Of a stretch of 55,485 nt of DNA, positions 24,439-45,585 are shown piece after piece. The position numbers and the translations under genes are program-made. Each line of letters starts with the position of its first letter. Position 1 is the stretch's first letter. The notes below the pieces were generated by a model that was not told the DNA's origin, ran no database searches, and worked only from the letters and a program-made list of their open reading frames with translations. The DNA comes from Candidatus Sericytochromatia bacterium. GTDB taxonomy: Bacteria; Cyanobacteriota; Sericytochromatia; S15B-MN24; UBA4093. The stretch is from positions 1 to 55,485 of the forward strand of contig JAKFCT010000057.1 of the NCBI GenBank assembly GCA_036676495.1. Direction: 5' to 3'.

Positions 24439-26019
24439 ATGGCGATGGACGACCAGCTTAAATCCCGCGAGCAGCTTATCGCGGAACTCGACCAGCTCCG
24501 GGCCGAACGTGAGACGCTCGACCATCTGGAGGTGGTTCCGGATCAGATCTTTCGGCTTGCCCCCGATTTCACCCTGATCGGCTACCTGGGGGGCAAGGAC
24601 GCCACGCCGATGATTCCCCCCGAGCAATTCCTCGGGCGGCACCTCCTCGAGGTCTTCCCCGGCGCCCTGGGCCGCCAGTTCCTGGCCACCCTCGAAGCCG
24701 CGCAGCAGACCGGTGACGTCCAGTCCCTCGAATACCAGCTCGAGCTCGACGGCCAGTTCCAAACCTTCGAGGTTCGTGCGCTTCGCGCCAGCCACGGAGA
24801 GGTGCTCGCCTTCGTCCGGGATATCACGGAGCGCGTGCGCACCGAGGAGAGCCTTCGCACCAGCCAGCAGCTGCTGACGGACTCTCAGCGGATCGCCCAT
24901 ATCGGATCCTGGCGCTGGGAGCTCAAGACCGGCGCAATCATGTGGACCGACGAGCAGTACCGGATCTTCGGCTACGCCCCCTGCGAGATCATGCCGACGC
25001 CCGAGGCCTTCCTCTCCCATGTGCCGCTGGACGAACGCGAGGGGGTCAAGGGAAAGCTTCTTTCCTCGGCGAAGAGCGGCGAGCCCTACAGCTGCGAGCA
25101 CCACATCGTGCGCCGGGACGGCGAGGTTCGCGTGGTCCTCTGCACCGCCCATGTCCTGCGCGACGCCACCGGCCGCCCGCATGCCATGGTCGGCACCACC
25201 CAGGACATCACGGAACGAAAGGCCCTCGAAGAGGCCCTCAGAGCTCAGAACGACCAGCTCCTGGAGCTGGATCGCCTCAAGAGCAGCTTCGTCAATTCCG
25301 TCACCCACGAGCTGCGCACCCCGCTCACCTCGATCATGGGCTACGCCGAGTTCCTCGAGGACGAGGTGGCCGGCGGCCTCAACCCGGACCAGCACGCCTT
25401 CGTCACCCAGATCCAGCGTGGCGCGGTCCGCCTCGGCAACCTGGTGGACGACCTGCTCGACTTCGCGCGTCTGCAATCCGGAGCCTTCAAGCTCCTGATC
25501 CGAGAGGTCGACCTGGGAGGGAAGCTTGCGGAGACGCTCGACGCCTTGTATCCCCAGGCGCAGGAGGCTCAAGTGGCTCTCGGTCACGCCCTCTGCGCGG
25601 ACCTGCCCGCGTTTCGCGGGGACCCCGAGCGCATCGGGCAGGTGCTCACCAATTTGATCGGAAATGCCATCAAGTTCACGCCCCCGGGAGGGCGCGTCGA
25701 TGTCGCGGTCTCCGTCTCGGGCGGGGAGATCCGCGTGGAGGTCCGGGACACGGGCATCGGGATCTCCCCTCAGCATCAGGCCAAGCTCTTCCAGAAGTTT
25801 TATCAGATCGACCCCAGCACCACCCGCGAGAAGGGCGGGGCGGGCCTGGGGCTTTCCATCTCGAAGGCCCTCGTCGAGGCCCACGGCGGCCAGATTGGCG
25901 TGACGAGCACGCTTGGCGAGGGCTCCTGCTTCTGGTTCATGTTGCCGATTGAGCCTCCGTCCTGCTACTCCGAGCGCTCCTTCAAGGCCCGTCCCTCGGC
26001 GCCTTCGCGCCGGGACTAG
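24439..26019 (+). CDS. Cytoplasmic PAS-PAS histidine kinase
   Basis: Two PAS domains; THELRTPLTSI, NLIGNAIKFT, DTGIGI, GAGLGL. Confidence 0.95.
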   Translation: MAMDDQLKSREQLIAELDQLRAERETLDHLEVVPDQIFRLAPDFTLIGYLGGKDATPMIPPEQFLGRHLLEVFPGALGRQFLATLEAAQQTGDVQSLEYQLELDGQFQTFEVRALRASHGEVLAFVRDITERVRTEESLRTSQQLLTDSQRIAHIGSWRWELKTGAIMWTDEQYRIFGYAPCEIMPTPEAFLSHVPLDEREGVKGKLLSSAKSGEPYSCEHHIVRRDGEVRVVLCTAHVLRDATGRPHAMVGTTQDITERKALEEALRAQNDQLLELDRLKSSFVNSVTHELRTPLTSIMGYAEFLEDEVAGGLNPDQHAFVTQIQRGAVRLGNLVDDLLDFARLQSGAFKLLIREVDLGGKLAETLDALYPQAQEAQVALGHALCADLPAFRGDPERIGQVLTNLIGNAIKFTPPGGRVDVAVSVSGGEIRVEVRDTGIGISPQHQAKLFQKFYQIDPSTTREKGGAGLGLSISKALVEAHGGQIGVTSTLGEGSCFWFMLPIEPPSCYSERSFKARPSAPSRRD

Positions 26020-26022
26020 GCG

Positions 26023-27546
26023 ATGACTGACTCCTCCTGGCCGCACGTGACGGCTGCCCTGCGGGCCCTGAGCGACCATAGCAGCGACCCGATGATCGTG
26101 AAGGACCTGGAAGGGCGCTTTCAGTACATGAACGCCGCGGGGCGCGCCTTCTTCGGCGTCGCTCCCGACGCGGTGCTCGACAAGACCCTGGGGGATCTGC
26201 TCGGGGCCGACTGGGGCTGGGAGGCGCGAGAAACCGATCTTGCGGCGATCGCCAGCGGAGCGCCCCAGCAAGCCGAGCTGGAACTCCCGGATCGCACGGG
26301 ATGCCTGCGCACCTTCACGGTCACCAAGCATGCCGTCCGGGATCCCGAGGGAGCCATCCAGGCGATCGGGCTTCTCATGCGGGAGATCTCCCAGCGCAAG
26401 GAGGCTGAGAACCTCCTCCTGCAGAGCCAGTCCACTTTCCTTAGCCTGCTCGGGTCAGCCTTCGAGGGTTTCGCGATCCATGAAAACGGCATCTTTCTTG
26501 AGGTCAGCGAAGGCCTGGCCCAGATGTTCGGCTATTCGACCGAGGAGTTGATCGGCATGTACGCCGTCAACATCGCGATCCCCGAGCACCGTGAACAGAT
26601 CGTCCAGTACATCCGCACGGGCTACGACAAGCCCTACGAGGCGGAGGGCTTGCGGCCGGACGGGACCCGCATCTATGTCGAGATGATCGGTCGTCCGTTC
26701 TATCATCAGGGGCGCTGGCTCCGAGTCACGGCCTTCCGGGACATTACCGAGCGCAAGCAGCTCGAGGCCACCTTGCGCGAGCAGAACGAGAAACTCAAGG
26801 ATCTCGACCGCCTCAAGAACGGCTTCATCAGCTCGGTTTCTCACGAGTTGCGCACGCCGCTGGCGTCGATCATGGGGTATTCGGAGTTCCTCGAGGACGA
26901 GGTCGCCGGCGCCCTGAACCCCGATCAACAGACCTTCGTGCGCCAGATCGCGGAGGGAGCCCGCCGCTTGCAGCTGCTGGTGGATGATTTGCTGGATTTC
27001 GCGCGGTTCGATTCCGGGGCGTTTCGGATTCACCCGCGGGAGGCCGACCTGGCGGAAAAGGTCGCGGAGATCGTGAACAGCTTGCAGCCGCAAGCGATCG
27101 AGGCGGCGCTTCGGCTCACCGTCCAGCTTCCAGGCGAGGAAGTGCCCCTGGCGTTCGATCCCGAGCGGATCGGCCAGGTGCTGCTCAATCTCTTGGGGAA
27201 CGCCATCAAGTTCACGCCCCGGGGAGGACGCATCGAGGTGCGGCTCCTGCCTGCGGAAGCAGACGTGCGCATCGAGGTGGAGGACAGCGGCATCGGCATC
27301 GACCCGGAGAATCTCCCCAAGCTCTTCCAGAAGTTCTTTCAGATCGACCCCAGCACCACCCGCGAGAAGGGCGGGGCGGGTCTGGGGCTTTCCATCTCGA
27401 AGGCCCTGGTCGAGGCCCACGGCGGCCGGATTGGGGTCGAGAGCCGCCGGGGCGCCGGCTCGCTCTTCTGGTTCACCTTGCCCCGGGGCCAGGCCACCGG
27501 CGGCGTCCCCGACGTCCCCGGAGCTCCGGATCGGATCTCGCGCTGA
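26023..27546 (+). CDS. Cytoplasmic PAS-PAS histidine kinase (paralog)
   Basis: [33 protein letters not shown]. Confidence 0.95.
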
Positions 27547-27907: not shown

Positions 27908-28615
27908 CTAGAGCTTGAAGAGATCGTCGGAGAGCTTGGGATTGAGCGCCATTCCGGAGAGCTGGGCCCGGAAGACCACGGTCGTTCCCTCGAAGCCCTC
28001 GACTTGCAGGGGCATGCGGTTCTGGCGATCGATGGCGAGCTGCATCTTGGAGCATCCGGGCAGCACGCCGGAGCCCTTGGTGACGTCGAGCAGGTCCGCG
28101 GGGCGCCCGGCGATCGTCACCGTGCCGGCATGGCGCACGGAGGCCGCCGGATCCAGGAGGCCTTCGATAATGGAGGTGAGGCTCGTCTGGTCGATCCGAT
28201 AGCCGCGCAGCGAGAGCACCTGCGGATCGTCGTAGGGGAGGGTCCGCTTGATGAAGCCGAGCTTGGCGGTGATGCGGCCGTCGCCGAGGTAGACGAGCTT
28301 GGCGCCGCGCTTGGTGACGGAGTCGGCCTCGGTGATGTTCGCGCGGAGCTTCTGGGGACGGGCCCAGAAGAACTCGGCCTTGCTGGTCGTGGTCTCGCGC
28401 CCCTTCTGCTCGAAGAAGGCCACGACGCCCGAGGCGCTCGTCGTCTTGCTCCAGGTCTGGCGGACGGCTTCCACCACCGCGCCCGCCTGGGCGTCCTTGG
28501 CACGAAGGCCCTGCTCCGAGCCTTGGTTCAGCTGAGGAAGGAACGGGCTGACGCCGCAACCGGTCATAAAGGCGGCCAGGGTGACGCCTGCCAGCAGGAT
28601 TCTGAGCTTTCGCAT
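27908..28615 (-). CDS. LolA-like lipoprotein
   Basis: Lipobox MTGC; FFWARPQKLRA, LAIDRQNRMP, C-terminal NPKLSDDLF. Confidence 0.7.
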   Translation of the reverse strand: MRKLRILLAGVTLAAFMTGCGVSPFLPQLNQGSEQGLRAKDAQAGAVVEAVRQTWSKTTSASGVVAFFEQKGRETTTSKAEFFWARPQKLRANITEADSVTKRGAKLVYLGDGRITAKLGFIKRTLPYDDPQVLSLRGYRIDQTSLTSIIEGLLDPAASVRHAGTVTIAGRPADLLDVTKGSGVLPGCSKMQLAIDRQNRMPLQVEGFEGTTVVFRAQLSGMALNPKLSDDLFKL

Positions 28616-29427: not shown

Positions 29428-29598
29428 GGGATGGGGACTCCGATCGACATGAGGGCCCTTTTATTCAACCACGTCCGAGCGCTTGAGTCGGGTGGGGGAG
29501 GGAAAAGCTAATCGGATTGAAACCTGGAGTTCATCTTGCGGAGGCAAGGAGCCCGTAACCTGGGGGGCGAAGGCGTTCCGACGAGAGAGGAGAGAGCG

Positions 29599-29820
29599 AT
29601 GCGACGCTGGTTGATGGTCATGGTGGCCGGGACGATGCTGCTCACGGGCTGCGTCACGCACCATACCTACCGCTCGGAGGCCCCGGGGCATTACAAGGGG
29701 TACTACCTCCAGGATGGCACCTACGTGAAGGTTCATCCGAAGAAGAGCTACGTCCAGGGCTACGTGCTCAGGGACGGGCGTCACGTCAAGGTGCACCCGA
29801 AGAAGGGCAAGAAGAAGTAG
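29599..29820 (+). CDS. Small basic lipoprotein with tandem GY.L.DG..VKVHPKK repeat
   Basis: Lipobox LTGC; two 18-aa repeats; GAGGAG RBS. Confidence 0.7.
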   Translation: MRRWLMVMVAGTMLLTGCVTHHTYRSEAPGHYKGYYLQDGTYVKVHPKKSYVQGYVLRDGRHVKVHPKKGKKK

Positions 29821-29830
29821 CTTGCCAAGC

Positions 29831-29912
29831 AAAAAGGTCCCCGTCTTGCGACGGGGACCGGAGGGGCTGATTGACCGTCCTCGCTTCCACTCGTTTCAGG
29901 TCTCACCTCTCT
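29831..29912 (-). ncRNA. Putative ncRNA E1
   Basis: Box 29948-29964, -10 TACCTT 29919-29924, TGAGACC-N18-GGACGG, GGTCCCCGTC-GCAA-GACGGGGACC-T5 terminator. Confidence 0.65.
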
Positions 29913-29947
29913 ACCTTTAAGGTAGCGGATCAGGGCCACATGCTCCA

Positions 29948-29964
29948 TCCGTAGTTGTTACTGA
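29948..29964. promoter_or_regulatory. Palindromic TCCGTA-N5-TACGGA box (E1)
   Basis: TCCGTA GTTGT TACTGA, 23 bp from -10. Confidence 0.65.
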
Positions 29965-30021
29965 AACTTTGCGGGCGGCTTTGCGGGTTTTTCATGCCTG
30001 AAAGCCGCTTTTCGTGGTCCC

Positions 30022-30156
30022 GGAGAAGGCGCCGGCCCCCGCTGAAACAGCGGGGGCCGCGTTGGTGAATATTCGGTTGGTTTCGACCAGTGGCTGATTC
30101 ATGGTGACGGGTGGGGGCCCGTCCAGTGAACGCTCCTTTCGGGTCTCAACGCTGAC
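30022..30156 (-). ncRNA. Putative ncRNA E2
   Basis: Box 30192-30208, -10 TACGGT 30163-30168, TGAGACC-N17-GGACGG, GGCCCCCGCTG/CAGCGGGGGCC hairpin. Confidence 0.55.
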
Positions 30157-30191
30157 GAACCTACCGTACCTCCGTCCGGTCACGGCGGCTA

Positions 30192-30208
30192 TCCGGAGAG
30201 AGTACTGA
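30192..30208. promoter_or_regulatory. Palindromic box (E2)
   Basis: TCCGGA GAGAG TACTGA, 23 bp from -10. Confidence 0.6.
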
Positions 30209-30251
30209 TGTTTAATCAGGCGAGCGTCACGAAGTCATGGCGGGGCGTTCG

Positions 30252-30411
30252 GGAGAAGGGTGGCCCCCGCCAGGGCTGGCGGGGGCCGGAGGGGCTGTTT
30301 GACCCGTTGAAGCGTGATGACAACGCGGCGGTGTCGATTGAGCGGCCCGGGTTACGGGTGCTGGGTGTTTGACCGTCCTCTTGGGTTCGGTTTTAGGGTC
30401 TCACCCCTCGC
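30252..30411 (-). ncRNA. Putative ncRNA E3
   Basis: Box 30446-30462, -10 TACGTT 30418-30423, TGAGACC-N18-GGACGG, GGCCCCCGCCAG/CTGGCGGGGGCC hairpin. Confidence 0.65.
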
Positions 30412-30445
30412 ATGCTTAACGTACCACCGCGGCGCGATCCAGGCA

Positions 30446-30462
30446 TCCGCACGGACTACGGA
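30446..30462. promoter_or_regulatory. Palindromic box (E3)
   Basis: TCCGCA CGGAC TACGGA, 22 bp from -10. Confidence 0.65.
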
Positions 30463-30481
30463 ACTTGCGAGCGTGCCGGGA

Positions 30482-30916
30482 TCAGGTGCCGCCCAGCCTT
30501 GCGAGCAGCCAGTAGACGGCGCCGAGGGCGAGGAGAGCGACGGCGAGGGTCAGCATGGCGTTGCGCATGTTTCGGGCCCATGGTCGGGGCGTCAGCACCA
30601 TGGTTTTCGGGCTGGCGACCCAGCGGATCACCTTCCCGGCGTCGTTCTGGACGGGGAAGAAGCCGGCGACCGTGCCGTATCGCGGGTAGCGCCCATCCTT
30701 TCGCTGGATGACGACGGGCTGCTCGTCGCTGGCGAAGTGCTGATCCCCACGGTAGGTGGCGGGGACGGGGAGGATGACGTAGGGGAAGCCCTGGGATTTC
30801 GGTTCTTCCGGGAAGCGGAAGCGCGCTCCGACGGGAAGGGAGCCGAGGGGGAGGGTTCGGGTCAGCATGGGAGGCCTCATCGGAGCGGGCGTCTGGGGCG
30901 CGGGTCGCGCGTCCAT
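30482..30916 (-). CDS. Hypothetical protein with C-terminal membrane anchor
   Basis: 144 aa; beta-rich core and C-terminal TM; lies between E3 and E4. Confidence 0.65.
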   Translation of the reverse strand: MDARPAPQTPAPMRPPMLTRTLPLGSLPVGARFRFPEEPKSQGFPYVILPVPATYRGDQHFASDEQPVVIQRKDGRYPRYGTVAGFFPVQNDAGKVIRWVASPKTMVLTPRPWARNMRNAMLTLAVALLALGAVYWLLARLGGT

Positions 30917-30928
30917 GCTCATCCTAGC

Positions 30929-31067
30929 AAAAAAGTCCCCCGCCGGGATCGGCGGGGGAGCATGAGGCGTATCGACCTTCTTTAACCTTAGTAAGGCTAC
31001 GTGGCGGGGCTCCCAGGTGGGTGCTTTACCGTCCTCAGAGTCACTGATTGAAGGTCTCAGCTCTCTC
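30929..31067 (-). ncRNA. Putative ncRNA E4
   Basis: Box 31102-31118, -10 TATGAT 31074-31079, TGAGACC-N18-GGACGG, TCCCCCGCCG/CGGCGGGGGA-T6 terminator. Confidence 0.65.
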
Positions 31068-31101
31068 CCTTTCATCATACCCACGCTTTTTGGGGCAACA
31101 C

Positions 31102-31118
31102 CCCGTGGAATCTACGGA
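31102..31118. promoter_or_regulatory. Palindromic box (E4)
   Basis: CCCGTG GAATC TACGGA, 22 bp from -10. Confidence 0.55.
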
Positions 31119-31359
31119 TCTTTGCCGGAGGTGCGAGGCCGATTCCCGTCGGGGCTGAATCGAGGGATATGGCGGGATTTTCGCGCGGATGCGCGCCAGG
31201 CCGGCCCGATTGGCCGCATCGGGGCGAAATCCCCGAGGATTCTCACCTCGAGAGGATCCTATGGTTTGATTCGCTGAAATCGACAGACAATATTGTCCAT
31301 TGCTTCTCGGCGCGAGACTTGTTACCCTTTTTGATAGAGACGTGTTAGAGGAGGGGAAA

Positions 31360-31716
31360 ATGCCTCGAGTCAAAAGTGTTGCTACCATTGAAAAGCCGGT
31401 TTCGGGCTCCCCTAAGGGGCGCCGGGCCAAAGCGTTTGAGACCGGCGAGGCGGTCGTCACCCAGCGTCGGCCCCGTCGTTCGCCCTATGACGTGGTCAAG
31501 GAGCTCAAGGCGCGGCGTGAGGAGCTGGCCCAGACCTACCAAGCGCGTCTCGCCAAGCTCGATCTTCGCATCGAGCGTTTGGAGGCCCGCTACGAAAAAA
31601 AGATCATGGTGACCCAGTTGCTCAACACCCGGACGCCTGAGGAGCTGGAGCGCGAGCTGGCCGCGGTCAAGAAGCAGCAAGCGATCCTCAAGAAAGCCCT
31701 CAAAACCCAACGGTAA
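31360..31716 (+). CDS. Basic coiled-coil hypothetical protein
   Basis: GAGGAGGGG RBS; Lys/Arg-rich N-terminus, heptad-rich C-terminus; hairpin follows at 31734-31765. Confidence 0.7.
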   Translation: MPRVKSVATIEKPVSGSPKGRRAKAFETGEAVVTQRRPRRSPYDVVKELKARREELAQTYQARLAKLDLRIERLEARYEKKIMVTQLLNTRTPEELERELAAVKKQQAILKKALKTQR

Positions 31717-31859
31717 CGGCCTTCCGACGCGTCGAGGCCCGCCGGCTCTTTAGCCGGCGGGCCTTCGGCTTGAAGGGCTTGGCGTCCGAGCGTTGATATT
31801 GCTTCATTAATCGCGGGTAAGGTAGGCATGGCAGTCCCGGAAGTGATGCGGGGGAACGG

Positions 31860-32231
31860 ATCATCAGGATTCTGGTCGTCGATGACTCGCGCTTCGCGCG
31901 GGAACTGGCAGTTGAGATCATCACGGAGCAAGGCTGGAGCGTGGTCGCGGAGGCCCAGAACGGCTATGAGGCGATCGCCAAGTACCGCCAGTACCTCCCG
32001 GACCTCGTCGTGATGGATATCAACACCCCGGAGATGGACGGCCTCTCCGCCCTGCAAGAAATCAAGCAGCAGTTTCCGGACGCCAAGGTCCTCATGTGCA
32101 CGGCTCTCGGCACCACGGATAACCTCAAATCCGCCCTGGCCCTGGGCGCGGCCGATTTTGTGGTCAAGCCCTTCCTCAAAGAGCGCCTGGTCATGGCCAT
32201 CCAGCGCATCCACCGTCAGCGGAGCCACTAG
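31860..32231 (+). CDS. Single-domain CheY-like response regulator lacking a canonical in-frame start
   Basis: IRILVVDDS.., PDLVVMDINTPEMDG, CTA, DFVVKPF; frame closed by TAA at 31818 with no ATG/GTG/TTG before the domain. Confidence 0.8.
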   Translation: MIRILVVDDSRFARELAVEIITEQGWSVVAEAQNGYEAIAKYRQYLPDLVVMDINTPEMDGLSALQEIKQQFPDAKVLMCTALGTTDNLKSALALGAADFVVKPFLKERLVMAIQRIHRQRSH

Positions 32232-35376: not shown

Positions 35377-36150
35377 TTAGCCGCCGGTGGAGACCTGCCA
35401 GACCATGGAGGCCGCAGAGAGGTCGATGAGGGCATGAACCGCCATGAGGTAGGGCAGCAGCCGGGGCCGCCAGCGCAGGACGAAGCCGAGCAGCAGGGCG
35501 AAGGGAATGAACATCCCCAGCCGCCACAGGATGAAGCGCGGATCCGGGATCAAGGGCAGGGTCACATGCTGGGCGGCCAGGACGAAGGCCGGAAGTATCA
35601 CGGGCCATCCGTACCCGGGGCGGCCGGCGGCCAGACGGGGCATGACGTAGCCGAAGTAGAAGGGGAGTTCGGCAAACGCGATGGTGAGCGGGAAGAGCAC
35701 CATGGCCATGAGCGCGACGGCAACGGGCAAGGGCTGCGCGAACATCGCGACCGGGGCCATGGGATCGCCGAAGAGGAGCTGCGCCAAGCCGATATTGGGC
35801 AGCATGGCGGCAGGGGCTGCGGCAATTAGGACTCCGAGCACGGTCAAGAGATCCCGCGTCACGTGCTGCCGGTCGAACACGGCGCCGATCAACTGCCAGT
35901 AACTGACGCCCTCACGGGCCGCTTGGCGGCGCAGGTACGCAATGGTGACGAGGTTGGTCAACGTCACGGAGACAGGCCACCAGGCTGCCGAGGCCGACCA
36001 CGGTGCGGAGTGGCCCATCACCAGGTACCCCACCGCGATCAGGGCCTGCCAGATGAGAAAAAGAACGAGTCGGTGAGCCAGCACCAAGCCGGCTTCGGTT
36101 CCCTTCACCTGAATCTGCTGCCCTGCGTGGCTGTCATGCGCTTGTATCAC
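35377..36150 (-). CDS. CPBP (Abi-like) intramembrane metalloprotease-like protein
   Basis: Multi-TM; AELPFYFGY, AAQH, MAVHALID. Confidence 0.6.
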   Translation of the reverse strand: MIQAHDSHAGQQIQVKGTEAGLVLAHRLVLFLIWQALIAVGYLVMGHSAPWSASAAWWPVSVTLTNLVTIAYLRRQAAREGVSYWQLIGAVFDRQHVTRDLLTVLGVLIAAAPAAMLPNIGLAQLLFGDPMAPVAMFAQPLPVAVALMAMVLFPLTIAFAELPFYFGYVMPRLAAGRPGYGWPVILPAFVLAAQHVTLPLIPDPRFILWRLGMFIPFALLLGFVLRWRPRLLPYLMAVHALIDLSAASMVWQVSTGG

Positions 36151-36495
36151 GGATATCCCCTGAGTGTGTCGAATGCGGCTAAACGTGCTATTTCAGCATA
36201 CCCTGCCGCGAATAAGGCAGGCAATTGCTCAGTTTCAGGGTGGCAAGGGTTTCTATCTGAGTAAGTGTCGTCCGCTGGCAAATCTGACCCGAGGGGGTAG
36301 ACGAAGCTAATCGCAGGCTGGCTTTTCGAGATGATGTAGTCCTTGGTCTGCTGCCCTAAACATTGGGCGTTACAAATCCTGCAACTTGTTGAATGATGAC
36401 ACTAGGGATATCACTACCAAGACAAAGGGGAGACCATTCTCTTGATTGCCGCAACACCCCCAACCCCCTCACTCCCCTCATCCTTGGATCCGCTC

Positions 36496-37137
36496 ATGGA
36501 CTTAATCACGGGCCTTTTTTGGCTGGTCATCCTCCTGGGAATCGGAATGATCGCCTTGAGAATCCTGAGTCGCAGGCCGGGAGTGTTAGGAAAGGTTTCA
36601 AGCATCATTCTAGAAGTGCTGGCAGAGGCGGGAGGAGGGCGCTCTCGAAAGCCTTCGTCTCGGAGAGCACTCGAGCGGGCGTATGAAAAGAGTTCAAACC
36701 TCTCATCGGAGGATTTCCCTTTCAAGGTAGACTCAAAGGCCTACTTCTTCACTAAATCTGAGGGCATTTTCTATCCCGAAATCGTGAAAGCCGCCGCAGA
36801 ACTTGAACTGTTGGTTTTTCCAAAGGTTGGCCTATGCGACATCTTCATTGACAAGCGAGGCGCCGATCGCAGTCAACATGCGCGGTACTCGCAGATGCAC
36901 GTAGACTATCTGCTGGTGCGCAGATCAGATTATTCACCCGTTGTAGGCATCGAGTTGAACGGGGCGAGCCACCTTGCCGAGAAGCAGCAATCGAACGACC
37001 GCAAGAAGAAGGCGGTTTTCGATGCGGCAGGTCTCCCGCTGGTGACCTTTTACAATCAGCCCTCTTATTCGGCGTGGGAGGTTCAGACGAAGTTGCAAGA
37101 CGTACTAGGCCTCAACTACCGTCCGAGCAGCCGTTAG
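36496..37137 (+). CDS. DUF2726 domain protein
   Basis: N-terminal TM; T.SE..FY, VFPKV.L.D, HVDYLL, IELNG.SH, D..K..VF..AGLPL. Confidence 0.8.
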   Translation: MDLITGLFWLVILLGIGMIALRILSRRPGVLGKVSSIILEVLAEAGGGRSRKPSSRRALERAYEKSSNLSSEDFPFKVDSKAYFFTKSEGIFYPEIVKAAAELELLVFPKVGLCDIFIDKRGADRSQHARYSQMHVDYLLVRRSDYSPVVGIELNGASHLAEKQQSNDRKKKAVFDAAGLPLVTFYNQPSYSAWEVQTKLQDVLGLNYRPSSR

Positions 37138-37141
37138 CAAC
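37124..37141 (+). repeat. 18-bp direct repeat copy 2
   Basis: CGAGCAGCCGTTAGCAAC overlapping the DUF2726 stop. Confidence 0.8.
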
Positions 37142-37186
37142 CTCACGGTCGGAGGGAGATCACCCGTACGCCGCATCGAAGCGCGG

Positions 37187-37266
37187 TATGGCATTCTAAG
37201 AGCATCAACCACACCACCCCTCTCTGAGCCGAGCCCGCCGGTCACACCCCGGCGGGTTTTCCCTTT
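37187..37266 (+). ncRNA. Putative small RNA, family F copy 2
   Basis: TATGGCATTCT..ACCACACCACCCCTCTC..GAGCCCGCCGGTCACACCCCGGCGGGTTTT. Confidence 0.55.
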
Positions 37267-37438
37267 GATTTGCCTAAAAAGCCCCTTTAATTGCCGACAG
37301 GCACTAAGACACTTACAGGCATTTTTTCGCCTGCTCTAGAGGCACCAGCATGGTCTGAAAGGCTTCCGTTCGATGGTCTGACCCTCGCCGAATTGCTGGG
37401 TATGAGACAAGAAGCGTCACCATCAAATGGGGGGAACG

Positions 37439-37678
37439 ATGCGGATTCTCGATAACGACACGAACAGAGCATTGGCTAACATCTCCGTCTTTCTAACCCC
37501 AGCGGATGCGAAGGAGATGATCGGGTATTTGGAGCACCTTCTCGAAGAGCCTCTTCTGCATCATGCTCACCTGAGCGACGAGGAATACAAGCGAGAGATC
37601 ACGCTCGCCGTTTACTCGGAATCGAACCTGAACGAGTTCGACGAGCGTTCCAGAAAGCTCATCATTGAAGGTCAGTAG
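37439..37678 (+). CDS. Small acidic hypothetical protein
   Basis: GGGGG RBS; 79 aa MRILDNDT.. Confidence 0.65.
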   Translation: MRILDNDTNRALANISVFLTPADAKEMIGYLEHLLEEPLLHHAHLSDEEYKREITLAVYSESNLNEFDERSRKLIIEGQ

Positions 37679-38555
37679 CAGGCTCAGCTTGGAGAGGCAT
37701 AAATTTGCCTACAACAGTAAGGACTTGCTAGTGCAAAAGCTTGAAGATTTAAGCCCATTTGAGTGGATAGAGAATAGCCTCCCGCCCGCACCCAAGAAGT
37801 TCGAAGCTGAGGTCGGCATTACGGTATCCGACTACCTGCCACCCAACTTTCAGGCCTACTGTAAGATCTTCCACCCCATCTACGTCGATCTTTCCGTCAA
37901 AGATAAGCACCTGGCCTGGGATGAGGAAGCCCGAAGGCAGTCTACTGAACTGCCCCATGATTTACCCCCTGAGATTAGGCCCGTTTTGGCGGAGATGCAA
38001 TCACGGGCAACATTGATTTGGGGATTGCCAGACGAGCCGTTTGAGGGGAAGAGGATTCTGTGGAAGGAAGTGGCACGTGAGTACGGCCTGCACTTTCATC
38101 CTGAATTTAGTGAAAGGTCGCTGACAAGCAGTTTTCCAACGCGAAGTTGGCCTCGTTACCTCATTGGGCCTGATGAAGGGCTATTAGATGCAGAGAGCAC
38201 GCACCAGCTCATTCTTCTACTAACGCCGTTTACCGGTAGGCAAGAGTGCTTCTTCTATTATGACAACTTTGCCACACGGAAAGTCGAGACGCTCATTTAC
38301 CGAGGTGCTCTTGAAGAGGTTGCTGATTTCGTTGCAGGAAACCGAGTAGTCTTTGGAACGCCAACCTACTGGTGGCCAGGGGATCGAAGTTGGTGTCTGA
38401 AAACGGATTACGACTCTACGTTCACTCTGGTGGGAGGATCGCAACAGCTTGTTCAGACGATACTCGCTGACCGTGTTTTGGAGGCAGTTGAAGTCTTACC
38501 TTCAACAAGGATCGACGGTCACGCCGACCAAATCAACTTCGAGCGCCAAGGTTAG
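37665..38555 (+). CDS. Hypothetical protein (C-terminal WWP.DRSWC..TD.D motif)
   Basis: 296-aa ORF; start uncertain. Confidence 0.7.
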   Translation: MKVSSRLSLERHKFAYNSKDLLVQKLEDLSPFEWIENSLPPAPKKFEAEVGITVSDYLPPNFQAYCKIFHPIYVDLSVKDKHLAWDEEARRQSTELPHDLPPEIRPVLAEMQSRATLIWGLPDEPFEGKRILWKEVAREYGLHFHPEFSERSLTSSFPTRSWPRYLIGPDEGLLDAESTHQLILLLTPFTGRQECFFYYDNFATRKVETLIYRGALEEVADFVAGNRVVFGTPTYWWPGDRSWCLKTDYDSTFTLVGGSQQLVQTILADRVLEAVEVLPSTRIDGHADQINFERQG

Positions 38556-38910
38556 AGCGGAGCTTCATGGCGTCTACAGCATCGGGCTTGCGGAAGGCGA
38601 GTTACCGCCCGAGCCAGATAACTGCTCGGTTAACGTATGGGCTGACATTGCCCCAGTCGGTAAACCAGGCGCGGAACAGTTCGTTTTCGAAGTTTGCACC
38701 CCGCAGTATCTCCAAGAGCACATCAAAGGAATTGACTATCGCTTCGGAAGGCACCTGCTCATTGTCGAGAATTTCAGCTGGCCGCTCGTCAGGAACGCCA
38801 TCGAAAAGATCTGCCACACCTTTGAGGGGGACACGTGGGATGAAGTCGCCAACAAGATAGGGCGCTACGGATACTGGGAATTTGAGGATTACCGTCCCTC
38901 CAGCGAGTAG
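38551..38910 (+). CDS. Imm8-like immunity protein; start codon unclear (GTT at expected position)
   Basis: RAEL.., F.F.VCTP..L, GRHLLIV, GDTWDEVA.KI.R...WEFEDY. Confidence 0.7.
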   Translation, partial: VRAELHGVYSIGLAEGELPPEPDNCSVNVWADIAPVGKPGAEQFVFEVCTPQYLQEHIKGIDYRFGRHLLIVENFSWPLVRNAIEKICHTFEGDTWDEVANKIGRYGYWEFEDYRPSSE

Positions 38911-38977
38911 CGGTACCCTGTCTGCCAGTGTAGTTGAATCTTGTCTGAGCTATGTTTCCGCTGAAGAAAAAGACCTA

Positions 38978-39166
38978 CTAGGTCTCCCCGGCGGATCTCG
39001 ATGAAACGCGTTTCGTTTCATTCCGAATACGAAAATTCCTCCCCAGCTTCTTGGCTGGCATCTTACCCCCCCTTATCCACCTGAAGCAGATAGTCCTGCC
39101 GATCCCAAGCTCCTTACTGGCTTCAACGGTTGATAAATACTCGCTTTGGCTCTTCGTCTCCACCAC
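38978..39166 (-). pseudogene. Excisionase-family (HTH_17) DNA-binding remnant
   Basis: YLSTVEASKELGIGRTICFRWIRGGKMPAKKLGRNFRI; 3' end runs into a repeated hairpin element. Confidence 0.65.
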
Positions 39167-39463
39167 CGTAGAAGCGAATGCAGTACGAACATAGAGTTCT
39201 TTCCTCCGGAAGTGAAGCAGCACCACGGAAGCTCAATTAATCACAAGCATGTCCAGGCCGTATTGTTTGCTGCATATTTTTCCACGTCAATAATTTGCGA
39301 CAGTATAGCCGTAAGCCAAGTAATTGAGCGCGTCTAAAGTTCTGTTACTGGTTCAAAATATTGGACTTTCAAATGGTGTGGCGTTTGGTGTACAACTGAG
39401 TGGCCGCATAATCTATGGGGTGCTTTATTGGCAGGCATAGAACCAGAACGCAGAAGGAAAGAA

Positions 39464-41296
39464 ATGAGACGCATTACACTCCTAATCACCGCTACGCTTT
39501 TAGCATCAAGTTGTTCGCTTCGTCCTACGCCGCATCAGGTGGTCACTCTAGCGAATGACCACCAAACAGCCCTTAGTCAGTACCATAAACCGCTCTCACC
39601 CGAAGAACTTTCAGAGATTTCTCGTCGCCTACAAGCACTTAAGACACAGCAAGAGCACGGTGACTACTCCGTGCAAGCATCAAAGCCGAAATACGCATAC
39701 AAAGGCATTCCAGGTCACCGTCACATTGATCAATTTTCGAAAGATGAATTAAATAAAGCTTCAGAAAATGAGCTAGTCGTAATTTTATTTGATAATGCAA
39801 AATTGGATAAACTTAGGTATAGGTTGGCTAATATGGGGTATTTCATTAGTGATTATTATTATGACACAATAATTGTACGCCTTGCGGATTCCGGGGAAAT
39901 CGGCATAAAAAAACATTTTAAAATATTAGAAGGCTTCCCAGAGGTAAAGGTAGTTTCACCGAGGTTCTATATAGATGCTTCTTTAAATAGCTCTGATGCA
40001 AATTTGCCGGCTCAATGGGGGGTAAGTCGGATTAATGCTCAAACTGCTTGGGAGTATCCTGGAATTCGTGAGTCTACGTTTAAGATTGCCATGCTTGATA
40101 CAGGAGTCGATTGGTTTCATGGTGATTTATCAAGCAAAGTTTCTCCAGATAGTATAAGGATTGTTCGTAATACTTCCGCGGGGCACCCTCAATTTGCTTA
40201 CGATGTGTATGATCAGAACGGTCATGGAACTCGTGTAGCTGGAATTGCAGCAGCAGCGACAAATAATAGTTTAGGAATTGCAGGGGCTGGATGGGGTTCG
40301 CTCATTCTGGCGCTTGCTACTGAAGAGCCAATAGGGGCCGATAATTTTCCACACGATTTTCTTAGGTATGCAACCCAGCTTGCGACTGAAAAAGGCGCTA
40401 AAGTTATCAACCTTAGTGCCCGTTCAACTGTGGATTCATGGATGTTGAGAGATATGGTTGCCAGAGCAGAAAGTAGCGGAATTCCAATAATTTCAGCATC
40501 AGGCAATGATAACTCCGCAAGTTTATATTACCCATCTGGATATAATAATCAGAACATTATTTCTGTCGGTGCTATCGACGAGAGTAATAACAGGGCTTCA
40601 TTTAGTAACTACGGTCCAAGTCTTGATCTTGTTGCGCCAGGTACAAATATCCTCAGTACAACAAAATACAACACCTACTCTTCTGCGTCTGGAACTAGCA
40701 TGGCTGCCCCGTTTGTCTCAGGCGCTTTTGCCAGTCTTTGGTATGCTTGCCGGGCATTGCCTTACGGGCAAATTCGAGATGTTCTATACATGACGGCAAT
40801 TAAGCCCAGTAATTATACTTTTACCAATGATTTTGGTTGGAATCAAGAAGTCGGATATGGGATTTTGAATTTTGGGAACGCGGCTAAATTTTTGCTTGAT
40901 TCAGGTGTAGTTTATCAATGGAGCACATCTGTGCGCGGTATTACGGCTTGGTCGAACAATCCGGCAGAGAGCTTTTCTGGGACATACCAGCGCATGAAAT
41001 TTGGATTAAGTGTCACGCAAGTTCCAGGTACAGTTCCTGTCTACCGTCGTTACTATCCCCCTAACGGTGACCGAATACTGACGACGGATATTAATAAAGA
41101 TAGTTATTACGATTATGAAGGCATTATTGGATATATTGCACAATCTCCTTTACCGTCAGAGGGAATGGTTCACGCATTGCACCATTTCTGGAAAGCAGGG
41201 CAAGGTCATTACTACACCACAGAGTATTCGGAAAGCGATTACCTTTTTAGTAATGGGTGGAATTACGCTCAAGTTATGGGATATGTTCGTTACTAA
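39464..41296 (+). CDS. S8 subtilisin-family lipoprotein protease with C-terminal aromatic-rich domain
   Basis: Lipobox LASSC; LDTGV, GHGTRVAG, SGTSMAAP; tail VYRRY..HYYT; strongly AT-rich. Confidence 0.92.
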   Translation: MRRITLLITATLLASSCSLRPTPHQVVTLANDHQTALSQYHKPLSPEELSEISRRLQALKTQQEHGDYSVQASKPKYAYKGIPGHRHIDQFSKDELNKASENELVVILFDNAKLDKLRYRLANMGYFISDYYYDTIIVRLADSGEIGIKKHFKILEGFPEVKVVSPRFYIDASLNSSDANLPAQWGVSRINAQTAWEYPGIRESTFKIAMLDTGVDWFHGDLSSKVSPDSIRIVRNTSAGHPQFAYDVYDQNGHGTRVAGIAAAATNNSLGIAGAGWGSLILALATEEPIGADNFPHDFLRYATQLATEKGAKVINLSARSTVDSWMLRDMVARAESSGIPIISASGNDNSASLYYPSGYNNQNIISVGAIDESNNRASFSNYGPSLDLVAPGTNILSTTKYNTYSSASGTSMAAPFVSGAFASLWYACRALPYGQIRDVLYMTAIKPSNYTFTNDFGWNQEVGYGILNFGNAAKFLLDSGVVYQWSTSVRGITAWSNNPAESFSGTYQRMKFGLSVTQVPGTVPVYRRYYPPNGDRILTTDINKDSYYDYEGIIGYIAQSPLPSEGMVHALHHFWKAGQGHYYTTEYSESDYLFSNGWNYAQVMGYVRY

Positions 41297-41312
41297 CAAG
41301 TAGTCGAGAATC

Positions 41313-41343
41313 GAGGCCTGCTAGTCATTGATCAGCAGGCCTC
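41313..41343 (+). terminator. Hairpin after S8 gene
   Basis: GAGGCCTGCT..AGCAGGCCTC. Confidence 0.6.
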
Positions 41344-41380
41344 CGCATTTCCGAATGTTATATCCCTCCTAAATTGAAAT

Positions 41381-41522
41381 ACTTATGGGTGTTTTTCACT
41401 CGTCCAAGAGGTTCCTGCATGGTCTGAGTGGCATCCGAAGGAATTCCCCCTATCCAAAATCAGCGACTCCCATGCCTCAAAGCAGGACAGCGGGAAGGTT
41501 TGGCCGAAAACGCAATAGTTTA
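41381..41522 (+). repeat. Degenerate ~140-bp intergenic repeat H
   Basis: Aligns with 43278-43412 and partially with 37311-37363. Confidence 0.75.
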
Positions 41523-41583
41523 GAAAATTGATTCTTAGATAATACCTCGTTATTTGTTTGGTTTTTCTGGGGACGTAGCACAT

Positions 41584-43107
41584 ATGAGAGCCATTTTTGA
41601 TGCCGCCAGATTCCTACGCTTACTCGCTTTGACGCTAACCATTGCGACAGGCGTGACAGCGGCAATACCGCCTTATCGCTCTCCCTTTCAATTGCCCATA
41701 ACCCTCGGCTGTATTGCTCTGGCATTCGTCATCTTTCGCTTGAAGCAGCCGCTTTGTGATATCGAGGCGAAGCTTGGAAGCCCCCGTGAAAAGCACAATC
41801 GAGGCGTCGAATACTATTACGGGCTTGGAGTAGCTTTAGACTACGAGAAAGCCTTTAGCTGGTTCAGTGCGGCGGTTGAAGAGGGCTTAACGCTAGCTAA
41901 TTTTTCCCTGGCAATCATGTACGAACAAGGCAAAGGTAGACACAAGGACTTGGCCGCAGCGATTGATTTGTACGAGAGCAGCGCAAAGGATGGGTTTGGC
42001 CCAGCGATGCTTCATCTTGGTAGTTTTTATGAGCGAGGCGAGGTTGTGGCCAAGAATCCCGAGGTGGCCATTTCTTGGTACAAGAAGGCCGCTGAGCAAG
42101 GCTGGCCCGAGGCCCAGGTAACTCTCGGGGTCAAGAATGAGTACGGAGTAGGTACCCAAATTGACTTCTCTGCCGCGCACGCCTTGTACGAGAAGGCCGC
42201 AAACGCGGGGTGCGCCGAGGCATTCTTTCATCTCGGCAGACTTAGCGAAATGGGCAAAGGCGTTGCAAAGGATCTAGAGAAAGCCGTTGATCTGTATCAC
42301 AAGGCAGCCAAGCGGGGCAGCACCGATGGCATGACCGCTCTTGGGTACAAGCTTTACCATGGCGTCGGAATACGTAAGAGCCGAAGGACTTCAGTACGTT
42401 GGCTGACAAAAGCCGCCGAACAGGGTAGTGAACTGGCTTGCTATTACCTGGGCGCGATCCACCAGCAGTCTGGTACAGAGAGAGGACTCGCTGAAGCTCT
42501 ACGCTGGTACCGCAGAGCGGCAGATAGAGGCTATGCAGACGCACTTGCACTTGCTGGTCGAATAGAGGAGAACCTTTCGGAACGAGGGCTCTCTGGTTTT
42601 CAGCCGTTCGAGACTTTCCAGGAGGCAGCTCGAAACGGCAGTAGTCTTGGGATGTACGAACTCGGCAGGTATTACCTAACCGGTAAGCATATTAGCCAAG
42701 ACTATCCCGAGGCGTTGAAGTGGTTCCGGAAGTCAGCACGGATTGGCAATACCGACGCGAAAACCAGCTTGGGAACGATGTACGCTGAAGGGCTTGGAGT
42801 CCCCAAGAACCTCCTTGCTGCGAGGAATCTGTTTGAACCTGCTGCCAATGTGAACAACTCAACAGCACAGTTCAGCTTGGGAGAACTGTTCGCGAAGGGC
42901 TTTGGTGTTGAGAAGAGTCTGATCACCGCGTTGAAATGGTACTTGATTGCCGCTGCTCAAGGAGATGACGACGCTCGAGAAGCTGCTGACCGATTGAGCA
43001 CAGAGATGGACTCCGTCCAAACCGAAGATGCCCGACGCCTTGCCTTGAGTTGGAGAGAAGCGCATCCAGTAGAAACGGCTATCTGGCCGCCCTACCCGTT
43101 GGTGTAA
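41584..43107 (+). CDS. Sel1-like repeat protein with N-terminal TM segments
   Basis: Many A...LG..Y..G.GV..D...A..WY..AA.QG repeats. Confidence 0.92.
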   Translation: MRAIFDAARFLRLLALTLTIATGVTAAIPPYRSPFQLPITLGCIALAFVIFRLKQPLCDIEAKLGSPREKHNRGVEYYYGLGVALDYEKAFSWFSAAVEEGLTLANFSLAIMYEQGKGRHKDLAAAIDLYESSAKDGFGPAMLHLGSFYERGEVVAKNPEVAISWYKKAAEQGWPEAQVTLGVKNEYGVGTQIDFSAAHALYEKAANAGCAEAFFHLGRLSEMGKGVAKDLEKAVDLYHKAAKRGSTDGMTALGYKLYHGVGIRKSRRTSVRWLTKAAEQGSELACYYLGAIHQQSGTERGLAEALRWYRRAADRGYADALALAGRIEENLSERGLSGFQPFETFQEAARNGSSLGMYELGRYYLTGKHISQDYPEALKWFRKSARIGNTDAKTSLGTMYAEGLGVPKNLLAARNLFEPAANVNNSTAQFSLGELFAKGFGVEKSLITALKWYLIAAAQGDDDAREAADRLSTEMDSVQTEDARRLALSWREAHPVETAIWPPYPLV

Positions 43108-43158
43108 GAGGGATCTCCACGTGGCAAAGAAAGCCCCTAACTTCCCGAACCGCCTGGG

Positions 43159-43238
43159 TGTGGCATTTTAAGAGCATTAACCACACCACCCCTCTCTGAA
43201 TCGAGCCCGCCGGTCACAACCCGGCGGGTTCCTCTTTT
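43159..43238 (+). ncRNA. Putative small RNA, family F copy 3
   Basis: TGTGGCATTTT..ACCACACCACCCCTCTC..GAGCCCGCCGGTCACAACCCGGCGGGTTCCTCTTTT. Confidence 0.55.
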
Positions 43239-43277
43239 GAGCTTGTTTATAACCCGCTCATATCTTGAGATACCGAA

Positions 43278-43412
43278 AGGTGTTTTTCCGCCCACCCAAT
43301 AGGCTCCAGCATGTTCTGAAGGGCAACGAGGAGAATTTGCTCTGTCCATAATTTGCGACTCCCATACATCAAAGCCAGACAAAGAGAAGATTTCGGCGAA
43401 GAGCATTAGTTC
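43278..43412 (+). repeat. Degenerate repeat H copy
   Basis: Shared blocks GGTGTTTTTC, AGGYTCCWGCATGKTCTGA, GCGACTCCCAT, TCAAAGC. Confidence 0.75.
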
Positions 43413-43519
43413 AATAGAATAGAAGATTAGATGTATTGATGGTGTATCGTTAGGTGTGTAGCTGGGTGTGCAGCGTAACTAGATAACCAACAACACATGA
43501 TGGCCAGAGGGGTTTCCCG

Positions 43520-44149
43520 GTGAATGTAGAACCGCCAGACCTTGAAGAATTCTCGCGTGACGTTTTTGATCTCGCAGGGGAGCCGCTGGCTCGGCTGTTC
43601 TTCTCAGTGGACGTCGAAGCATCCGCGCGCAAGAGAAGCCACCTAGTCTCTGGCTACTGCGATCAGGTTCTCATCGTACTGGGTAACGATAAGGTTCTAA
43701 CCTTCGAGCAACGGCAGATCCGTTTCTCAAACGAGAATGGGGAAACCGAGGTATTCTTCGACTACGGACTCGAAAGTACTGTCGAGGAGTGGATTCAGCC
43801 CTTCTCCTTCGGTGATTACCTTAGTGCCGAAGAGATGACGGGAACTTATCCCTGGGTCCGAACAGCAGGACAAACGATAGAAAGGGTAGAGTTTTGCGTA
43901 AGCAGTACATCCCTCTGCTTCGAGAGAGACCTTTTCATTCGTAAGAGAATCCTATGGCCTCCACCGTTTGACCTGGCCATCCCAGCAGGCGACTCAGTCT
44001 CTGTCTACTACCCAAGGGAAGTTACTCTTTTCCTCTCATCAGGCTCGAAGCTGGTGATCGAGGGCTTGCTATCGACCGACGGCACCGATTTCTTGGCAAT
44101 AGGTGGAGTAAAGGCGACTCTGCTTGACGAGGGCTCATTGCGAGGATGA
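43520..44149 (+). CDS. Hypothetical acidic protein
   Basis: GAGGGG RBS, GTG start, 209 aa. Confidence 0.6.
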   Translation: MNVEPPDLEEFSRDVFDLAGEPLARLFFSVDVEASARKRSHLVSGYCDQVLIVLGNDKVLTFEQRQIRFSNENGETEVFFDYGLESTVEEWIQPFSFGDYLSAEEMTGTYPWVRTAGQTIERVEFCVSSTSLCFERDLFIRKRILWPPPFDLAIPAGDSVSVYYPREVTLFLSSGSKLVIEGLLSTDGTDFLAIGGVKATLLDEGSLRG

Positions 44150-44382
44150 ACAATCAACGGCCCACCTAGATTCTGTAGGCCTTCCTAAGCACGTCGAAGG
44201 ATACTGGTACCCCATCGAGTTTCCGATCGTGCCGCTTCTGGGATTGTTACTGGGGGCGATCGTCTTACTTGTTTTGAGGCGCCGAAGAAAATTGCGTTGA
44301 CGTGGCGAATACCACCCTTGATCGCATTGCTCCAGGGAGTAGCAAGTTGGCTCGTCGTAAAGCTAATCCGCAAGGGGAACAA

Positions 44383-44730: not shown

Positions 44731-44796
44731 CAAGCCATCCCATGGTGGTAATGAATGTCCGAAAGAAGAAGACCCGCAAAGCCTCCAGGGATGCCA

Positions 44797-45321: not shown

Positions 45322-45585
45322 ACTGTACCTTGCCTTCGTTAATGGGGGCTCTGATGTTCGGATGCCAGCTAGAAACATCCTACCCTTGTGAAGCTATGTG
45401 GGCTCCCTATGCAAAAGAACGACCCGCCAGGTCTCCCCGGCGGGTCTCAGAGAAACAATACGCGTTCCATCTGTTTCAGTGGTTTCACGTTCAGACGTGA
45501 GCCGGCCTGACTCACGCCCGTGGGAGAAAAGAAAAAGGGAGACCACCGATCCAGGCGAATGCCATAAAGGAAACGGGGCTCCCAG

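Follow-up and report, generated by a model that had tools for sequence, protein, structure and literature searches.

A family of structured RNAs with a shared palindromic promoter box in Candidatus Sericytochromatia: candidate co-regulated sibling small RNAs

Contig JAKFCT010000057.1 of assembly GCA_036676495.1 (Candidatus Sericytochromatia bacterium) carries a tandem array of four homologous units, E1 to E4, which, judged from sequence comparisons, represent a new family of structured RNAs. The sequence, the fold, and the associated regulon motif are new; the kind of system to which they would belong, that of sibling small RNAs (sRNAs), is known. Comparative analysis confirmed that the units are homologous RNA genes whose predicted structure is conserved with compensatory changes, and we lean toward the view that E1-E4 and their relatives are co-regulated sRNAs that act in trans by base pairing. 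The window, i.e., the whole stretch of DNA that was analyzed, comprises 55,485 nt. Sericytochromatia are uncultured, non-photosynthetic relatives of cyanobacteria. The genome containing the window (G000; 4.14 Mb, 66% G+C, 106 contigs, 92% complete) was compared with relatives labeled G001-G006, G008, and G018, among others; contigs are denoted C10, C77, and so on, families f1 and f4, and genera g1-g4.

The array is marked by a core motif, TGAGACC-N(15-20)-GGACGG, which has four matches in the window, all on the minus strand and none outside the array. Shuffled sequences gave a mean of 0.01 matches, and 0 of 100 shuffles reached four. In E1-E4, alignment and scripted measurement placed TGAGACC 13-14 nt past a promoter-like hexamer and GGACGG 17-18 nt further. 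Unit boundaries were set by an alignment column and a hairpin search, and the RNA start was assumed to lie 6 nt past the hexamer, giving predicted 5' ends at 29912 (E1), 30156 (E2), 30411 (E3), and 31067 (E4). In the following list, P1 and P2 form the helix that closes each RNA, P3 and P3a are further helices of the long forms, R1 is a sequence-only model of the promoter and 5' domain, and R2 is a structural model of the RNA family.

29875-29905, 30119-30148, 30373-30403, and 31029-31059, minus strand: core motif TGAGACC-N(15-20)-GGACGG (pattern scan)
29830-29912, minus strand: E1 RNA, short form, 83 nt, closing helix P1/P2 with a 22-nt loop (fold z -3.05)
29836-29859, minus strand: E1 terminator hairpin with U-tract (simple terminator scan)
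30024-30156, minus strand: E2 RNA, variant form, 133 nt (fold z -3.44; R1 63 bits)
about 30030-30061, minus strand: E2 terminator hairpin with a U-poor tail
30256-30411, minus strand: E3 RNA, long form, 156 nt, with P1, P2, the variable segment, P3, and an enlarged P3a (fold z -3.77)
about 30262-30287, minus strand: E3 terminator hairpin
30930-31067, minus strand: E4 RNA, long form, 138 nt (fold z -4.91; R2 31.2 bits; R1 67.5 bits)
30936-30959, minus strand: E4 terminator hairpin with U-tract (simple terminator scan)

The folding energy of each RNA beats all 200 of its shuffled versions (z -3.05 to -4.91). The minimum free energy fold of E3 displays P1, P2, and P3, and E3 scores 58.6 bits with R2; E1 matches the same model with an E value of 4.7e-7, and E2 scores just 17.3 bits. 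The simple terminator scan scored E1 and E4 only. No open reading frame (ORF) inside the units passes the codon-position test, and homologous units differ in length by non-multiples of three. The gene beyond E1 is convergent with it, and E2 and E3 have nothing but the next unit of the array after them; none of the three has a gene downstream on its strand. These results bear out much of a preliminary description of the window, which had proposed four homologous minus-strand units with rigid geometry, RNAs of about 80, 135, 160, and 140 nt (computed lengths with the same 5' ends: 83, 133, 156, and 138 nt), no credible ORF in the units, and no gene downstream of E1-E3; E4 does have a conserved ORF after it.

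Folding of 21 family members as single sequences showed that the 5' end repeatedly pairs with the stretch just ahead of the terminator. Compensatory pairs were found along both parts of this helix, namely in P1 (GAGGGG/CCCCUC, AAGGAGG/CCUCCUU, AAAGAG/CUCUUU, and GAAGAG/CUCUUC) and in P2 (GACCC/GGGUC, GACCUG/CAGGUC, GACCUU/AAGGUC, GGCCUU/AAGGCC, and GCCUG/CAGGC). Indeed, when the first 17 nt were set against the 26 nt preceding the hairpin, cognate strands formed duplexes with a mean of -15.1 kcal/mol, compared with -12.5 kcal/mol for non-cognate strands, and the most divergent members ranked 2 of 21.

Further analysis scored a hand-specified structure (P1, P1b, P2, P3 as GG-A-CGG with CCGCC, a 2-bp P3a, and the terminator) on three alignments: nine sequences aligned with MAFFT and unfitted to the structure (A3), 20 members with E <= 1e-4 aligned to the model (A5), and 25 rows including two spurious weak matches (A4). 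The fitted alignments A4 and A5 are biased toward the model, and the unfitted A3 is free of that bias. In A3, 88.8% of the cells were paired, as against 41-52% with the structure slid, covariation was 0.253 compared with at most 0.119 when slid, and 8 of 27 pairs had changed on both sides. The corresponding values were 91.9% versus 41-55%, 0.276 versus at most 0.107, and 16 of 27 pairs for A5, and 91.3% versus 41-53%, 0.291 versus at most 0.107, and 19 of 27 pairs for A4. The covariation was reached by 0 of 500 shuffles in each of the three alignments. A combination of MAFFT and RNAalifold applied to 15 long forms had missed P1/P2 owing to misaligned 3' strands, a discrepancy that the strand-pairing test and the hand-specified structure resolved. 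An alternative pairing of the 5' strand with a proximal GGUC-AACACC, read by eye, had no compensatory change in its support.

P3 is invariant (four of its five pairs never vary, and one is a G-U), and covariation therefore neither supports nor contradicts it. Two observations favor this helix: E4-type members, in which the competing local hairpin GGCG-ACAC-CGCC is disrupted, can still form it, and E2-type members pair GGACGG with another partner (GACGGG/CCCGUC), locally and with a C-rich loop in E2 itself.

Members of the family are 64-165 nt in length and occur in long and short forms. Long forms contain P1, P2, P3, the conserved joining nucleotides U-AACA and CGACA, a variable P3a, and an additional variable hairpin ahead of the P2 return strand; GGACGG, CCGCC, and the surrounding loop nucleotides are invariant in all 17-18 aligned long forms. 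The short forms (E1, its G002 and G001 counterparts, and a 64-nt unit in G002) occur in three genomes of the genus and keep only the promoter, P1/P2, the variable segment, and the terminator, with the GGUC of GGACGGUC as the P2 return strand. The core motif stretch of E1 is identical letter for letter in G000 and G002, and the promoter spacers differ. The 17-18 nt segment between TGAGACC and GGACGG is conserved among orthologues and differs among paralogues.

Each unit of the array is preceded by the same arrangement of a palindromic box and a hexamer:

29919-29964, minus strand: E1 promoter region, with box 29948-29964, a 23-bp spacer, and TACCTT 29919-29924
30163-30208, minus strand: E2 promoter region, with box 30192-30208, a 23-bp spacer, and TACGGT
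30418-30462, minus strand: E3 promoter region, with box 30446-30462, a 22-bp spacer, and TACGTT
31074-31118, minus strand: E4 promoter region, with box 31102-31118, a 22-bp spacer, and TATGAT

The boxes of E1-E4 have 1, 2, 1, and 2 mismatches, respectively, to the 17-bp palindrome TCCGTA-N5-TACGGA. Over 21 units the consensus reads TC(C/G)GTA-N5-TACGGA, with positions 1, 2, 4, 14, and 15 invariant, and box and hexamer are separated by 22 bp in all but three units, which have 23 bp (18 and 3 of 21). A TAnnnT hexamer is present in 19 of the 21, and all 21 have the box and the hexamer position at fixed spacing as well as the hairpin. A simple scan of the region for a sigma-70-type -35/-10 pair returned none. 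Under the assumed start, the box is centered near -43 and covers the -35 position, which, together with the missing -35 element, is consistent with dependence on an activator. Judged by this arrangement, a class-II-type activator would fit; a repressor is also possible.

The box also occurs elsewhere in the genome, with 4 sites matching perfectly, 11 with one mismatch, and 78 with two. Each of the four perfect boxes in G000 is located in an intergenic region, with a gene 50-110 bp downstream. Five g1/g2 genomes contain 4, 4, 3, 3, and 4 perfect boxes compared with 2 matches to the backward control, and none was found in g3 or g4; outside f1, there were 5 perfect boxes in 37 genomes compared with 13 control matches. 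Apart from the sRNA copies themselves, the following G000 genes lie behind perfect or one-mismatch boxes:

C14: PAS/GAF sensor
C19, C24, and C94: three methyl-accepting chemotaxis proteins
C37: methyltransferase / rhodanese-metallo-beta-lactamase pair
C56: isoamylase
C80: NuoA-like subunit

Box arrangements recur in sister genomes for the PAS/GAF gene (G001) and the methyltransferase (G002). In g2 the boxes precede other genes, in the neighborhoods of a major facilitator superfamily (MFS) transporter, a short-chain dehydrogenase, YtkA/COX1, and a P-type ATPase, and the candidate regulon therefore appears to be conserved only partly, without a single clear theme. As a candidate regulon motif, the box would link the RNA family to genes for chemoreceptors and PAS/GAF sensors and to others related to redox or sulfur.

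NarL-type response regulator genes adjoin boxes at C24 (gene at 1578-2216) and C94 (gene at 31168-31851). As candidates for the box-binding factor these regulators gained no support, since they have many paralogues and no diagnostic distribution, and the box upstream of their orthologues is kept inconsistently. Two kinds of box-like sequence were also noted. Three intergenic, near-identical 17-mers in G000 (C22:22659, C48:43900, and C80:110526) resemble the box with 2 mismatches and have the right half CCCGGA; they could represent either a variant of the site or a repeat in its own right. In addition, a box-like palindrome lies within a conserved coding region at G000:C10:21130 and G001:C43:183584, which is probably a coincidence and not a regulatory site.

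With regard to distribution, G000 contains six copies: E1-E4, C10:61132-61264 (plus strand), and a divergent copy at C77:28466-28570 (minus strand). The C10 copy faces a convergent permease gene, and downstream genes vary from locus to locus. At the C77 locus (28466-28599), the copy is followed by a SnoaL-like gene and is equipped with a box of its own (1 mismatch) and the hexamer TATCCT; its P2 is AUCC/GGAU in place of GACC/GGUC, and it is without GGACGG. A box with the same hexamer and spacing as the C77 copy was observed at G002:C11. R1 gave 20 matches in 6 of the 10 genomes of the taxonomic family (five in G000, one in G001, five in G002, three in G003, two in G005, and four in G006) and no match in the three g3 genomes or G008. 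Across the order it matched 7 of 27 genomes, the seventh being a weak match in G018. Among 47 genomes of the class, R2 matched 6, and it likewise matched 6 in a sample of 151 genomes from the phylum, with all matches in family f1, plus G018 (family f4).

A strict DNA pattern searched in 185,579 species genomes returned 21 matches, and R1 confirmed only four of these loci; three of the contigs bear the title Candidatus Sericytochromatia bacterium, and the fourth is a Stenomitos sp. MAG by title. The 17 matches that R1 did not confirm were discarded as chance. A housekeeping protein proved uninformative on taxonomy, since its matches were spread over many phyla at only 45-56% identity. A pattern scan of metagenomes yielded three true members among the 119 matches listed, and these share the box, hexamer, and architecture. 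Collectively, we have found about 24 homologues across one family of Sericytochromatia-like genomes and three metagenome contigs, and the RNA family is so far confined to that one family of bacteria. The array itself is syntenic in G002, with four units, the same convergent small gene, an ORF after the E4-like unit, and a divergent coiled-coil gene.

Two neighborhoods in the relatives deserve mention. Three members from genus g2 (L106 at G003:C76, L102 at G006:C149, and L110 at G006:C304) lie immediately 3' of a histidine-kinase gene on the same strand, which encodes roughly 490 amino acids with HisKA/HATPase domains and is preceded by a GTP cyclohydrolase I gene in two loci. These loci were considered as a clue to the regulator and set aside, since the gene before the kinase encodes that enzyme and not a regulator. 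In one relative, an integrase gene follows the tandem sRNA pair at a distance of about 0.8 kb.

A scan of the whole window with the Rfam 15 covariance models returned only a tRNA above the gathering threshold. Between 29500 and 31500, the best scores against the respective gathering scores were 18.6/80 for Spot_42, 18.4/39 for NsiR1, 16.9/39 for BjrC68, and 13.5/65.3 for CcsR1; for the first three, the terminator hairpin makes up most of what was aligned. No regulatory RNAs described for this class turned up in a full-text search for Sericytochromatia together with sRNA. The preliminary description had recognized no known RNA family and regarded the array as a candidate for an undescribed system, and both views hold in that Rfam gave no match in the array and no such system was found in the literature searched. 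The covariance model and search of relatives that it suggested as a check yielded the homologues in f1 and the compensatory changes. Two of its points need adjustment: the four-unit array stands for the window, but the genome holds two more copies (C10 and C77), and the 3' arm that it called variable does include the variable P3a and hairpin, but is structured, with the 5' end pairing with the stretch before the terminator. The independent promotion that it proposed agrees with the same palindrome and -10-like hexamer at a fixed distance, with the U-tract weak in E2 and E3. The new family is well supported by covariation and suitable for Rfam, and it may provide an entry point to gene regulation in Sericytochromatia.

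Given these features, we propose a mechanism in which each RNA gene would have its own promoter, formed by the palindrome centered near -43 and the TAnnnT -10 element with no -35 element. One dimeric transcription factor would most likely activate all copies together and would also act on the box-bearing chemoreceptor, PAS/GAF sensor, and other genes. In the predicted RNA, the purine-rich 5' end would pair with a C/U-rich stretch ahead of the terminator (P1), followed by GACC/GGUC (P2), and this helix would present the 17-18 nt paralogue-specific segment; long forms would add the invariant helix GG-A-CGG/CCGCC with its conserved internal loop. The RNAs would then pair with messenger RNAs (mRNAs) in trans, with the paralogue-specific segment as the main recognition element, and the C/U-rich strand could serve as a second, anti-Shine-Dalgarno-like one. 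Transcription, activation, trans action, and targets are what we infer for the family. Conservation of the segment in orthologues and its difference in paralogues are as expected of the target-recognition regions of diverging sibling sRNAs. In addition, the promoter, P1/P2, the segment, and the terminator are common to every member, short forms included, which favors base-pairing sRNAs.

When 12,181 candidate start regions were screened for targets with RNAduplex, the best duplex (-39.6 kcal/mol) involved the 5' untranslated region (UTR) of a gene for an outer-membrane protein. Just upstream of its ribosome-binding site, this MetA-family gene has a stretch of 19-20 nt that is complementary to the E1 loop apart from one bulge; the UTR has repeated CCACUCG, and the site is similar in G002 and weaker in G001.

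C82:122251-123237, minus strand: MetA-family outer-membrane protein gene, with its 5'UTR at 123238-123300

Several observations weigh against base-pairing sibling sRNAs under a common box. The C82 duplex is not significant, since one of the 12 shuffled queries yielded a lower energy in a run over only half of the windows, and part of the UTR element is also present in G003, where no E1-type RNA was found; we regard the site as a lead and not as evidence. Hfq was not found in the 92%-complete G000 genome. The C/U-rich strand is itself paired within P1, and in E2 and E4 the 3' strand of P1 is not C/U-rich. The hairpin tails of E2 and E3 are C/U-rich with few U and lack a U-tract. As regards the box, three control patterns had no perfect match in the genome, but a control palindrome of the same composition, CCTGAT-N5-ATCAGG, was counted 6 times, probably as both strands of 3 sites; with such mixed controls, the enrichment of the box rests on its location and cross-genome pattern. 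Finally, pure base pairing would leave the invariant core GGACGGU-AACA / CGACACCGCC unexplained.

This last point is the starting point of the alternative that survives best, in which the RNAs bind or sequester a protein: GGACGGU-AACA with CGACACCGCC would form a platform, and the copies would titrate a regulator in the manner of CsrB/Rsm, 6S, or GlmY-type RNAs. GGACGG, CCGCC, and the loop nucleotides are invariant, a sequence conservation beyond what a helix needs; moreover, the genome has a CsrA gene, and the invariant motif includes GGA. The short forms, however, lack the 3' half of this core, and yet they are kept in three genomes, with the core motif stretch identical in two. We consider protein binding, as an added or an alternative role, rather unlikely, though it is the alternative that we take most seriously. 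For CsrA in particular, each RNA has only 1-2 GGA motifs, and the invariant one is predicted to lie inside helix P3; the csrA gene adjoins fliW (an adjacent fliW-csrA pair was located at G000:C23:33737-34284), and all 10 genomes of the family encode CsrA, the four without the RNA among them. A CsrA sponge was rejected on GGA count, FliW pairing, and distribution.

Both kinds of action could also be joined in a modular RNA, a scaffold plus programmable loop, in which the invariant core (P1/P2/P3 and the conserved internal loop) would recruit a protein and the paralogue-specific segment of 17-18 nt, rigidly spaced from GAGACC on one side and GGACGG on the other, would guide the complex toward different nucleic-acid targets. 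This idea is speculative, and we give it a small chance. If true, a single regulator would turn on the whole set of RNAs along with chemoreceptor and sensor genes, and Sericytochromatia would have a native regulatory system that resembles guide RNAs.

A different explanation is that the units are cis-acting leaders, akin to riboswitches or attenuators, in which ligand-dependent termination would control downstream genes. A conserved ORF about 60 nt past the E4 terminator, repeated in G002, and the resemblance of a multi-helix junction with invariant unpaired nucleotides to an aptamer speak for it. A same-strand downstream gene, however, is present only for E4 and its G002 counterpart, and not for E1-E3 or the C10 copy with its convergent permease gene; the downstream genes differ at every locus, and the short forms lack most of the would-be aptamer. 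Cis action thus seems quite improbable. Least of all do we expect the units to be non-functional repeats, whether decayed mobile-element or coding fragments or repetitive extragenic palindromic (REP)-like intergenic repeats: they are multicopy, tandem, and G+C-rich with hairpins, and an integrase gene lies near one relative's pair, but four helices are maintained by compensatory changes, promoter spacing is fixed in 21 of 21 copies, the array is syntenic in two genomes, no ORF passes the codon-position test, and the length differences of homologues are not multiples of three. The compensatory changes, spacing, and synteny likewise disfavor decayed coding or insertion sequence (IS) fragments, which the preliminary description had named among the findings that would overturn it.

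Base-pairing sibling sRNAs have counterparts elsewhere. The LhrC sRNAs comprise four copies in tandem and one elsewhere. LhrC1-5 of Listeria monocytogenes are described as LisR-dependent multicopy sRNAs whose C/U-rich stretches pair with Shine-Dalgarno regions (PMC5880928). The likeness is that one regulator governs, or here would govern, a set of homologous sRNA genes within a genome, which here number 4 + 2. However, there is no homology in sequence or structure, and no Rfam family reached its gathering score here; our C/U-rich stretch is predicted to pair with the 5' end and is not exposed in loops, the invariant internal helix and loop are absent from LhrC, and the two occur in different phyla. 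NsiR1 of heterocystous cyanobacteria (RF02399) is HetR-dependent (PMC9045159). Its Rfam match here (18.4 bits versus a gathering score of 39) did not extend beyond the E4 terminator hairpin; NsiR1 has a length of about 60 nt, and promoter motif, structure, and lineage all differ. Neither RNA is homologous to the present family, and a closing helix that sequesters a C/U-rich strand and an invariant helix and loop are without counterpart in them.

Other siblings, of the Qrr1-5, OmrA-B, and PrrF type, are paralogous sRNAs with a common transcription-factor site and additive or redundant effects. They are Hfq-dependent, and their seeds are conserved between siblings, whereas here no Hfq was found and siblings diverge in their single-stranded segment. 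For CsrB/RsmY/RsmZ, a NarL-type response regulator (GacA) acts at a palindromic activator site upstream of the gene, and these RNAs resemble our family in being multicopy, with a conserved GGA motif and an encoded CsrA here. They differ in exposing many GGA motifs in loops, compared with the 1-2 found here, of which the conserved one lies in a predicted helix; in addition, CsrA is here paired with FliW, and its presence does not co-vary with the RNA. For sibling sRNAs, it is unusual to combine an invariant core with a segment that is specific to each paralogue and set in a fixed geometry.

The genes around the array are as follows:

24439-27546, plus strand: two PAS histidine kinases
between these kinases and the small convergent gene: a glutaredoxin-like gene and a PAP2 gene
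29536-29820, plus strand: small lipoprotein-like gene convergent with E1, the E1 terminator lying between them (arrangement repeated in G002)
30482-30868, minus strand: conserved ORF after E4 with a C-terminal hydrophobic stretch and no Pfam match (an upstream start would extend it to 30934)
31360-31716, plus strand: basic coiled-coil protein of 118 amino acids without a Pfam match, divergent from E4 (75% identity in G002)
31821-32231, plus strand: CheY-like receiver gene
after the CheY-like receiver gene: glyoxalase, glutaredoxin, and GNAT genes

No DNA-binding regulator is among these listed neighborhood genes. The ORF after E4 starts about 60 nt beyond its terminator and shares 63% identity with the syntenic ORF in G002. 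The coiled-coil protein gene adjoins an sRNA in G001 as well; as a dedicated partner of the RNA it was rejected, since it occurs in 18 of 27 genomes of the order, well beyond the range of the RNA. The CheY-like gene has no in-frame ATG, GTG, or TTG before 31941, although typical N-terminal receiver sequence begins near 31860, and an ATG at 31846 is out of frame, just ahead of a run of five G (31850-31854). This anomaly could reflect a homopolymer assembly error or a non-canonical start. Further along the window, a low-G+C island spans 36150-45600 (43-55% compared with about 65% in its surroundings) and ends at a tRNA gene (45586-45657, minus strand). Its ORFs fail the codon-position G+C pattern of the genome, and the island was probably acquired horizontally and integrated at the tRNA.

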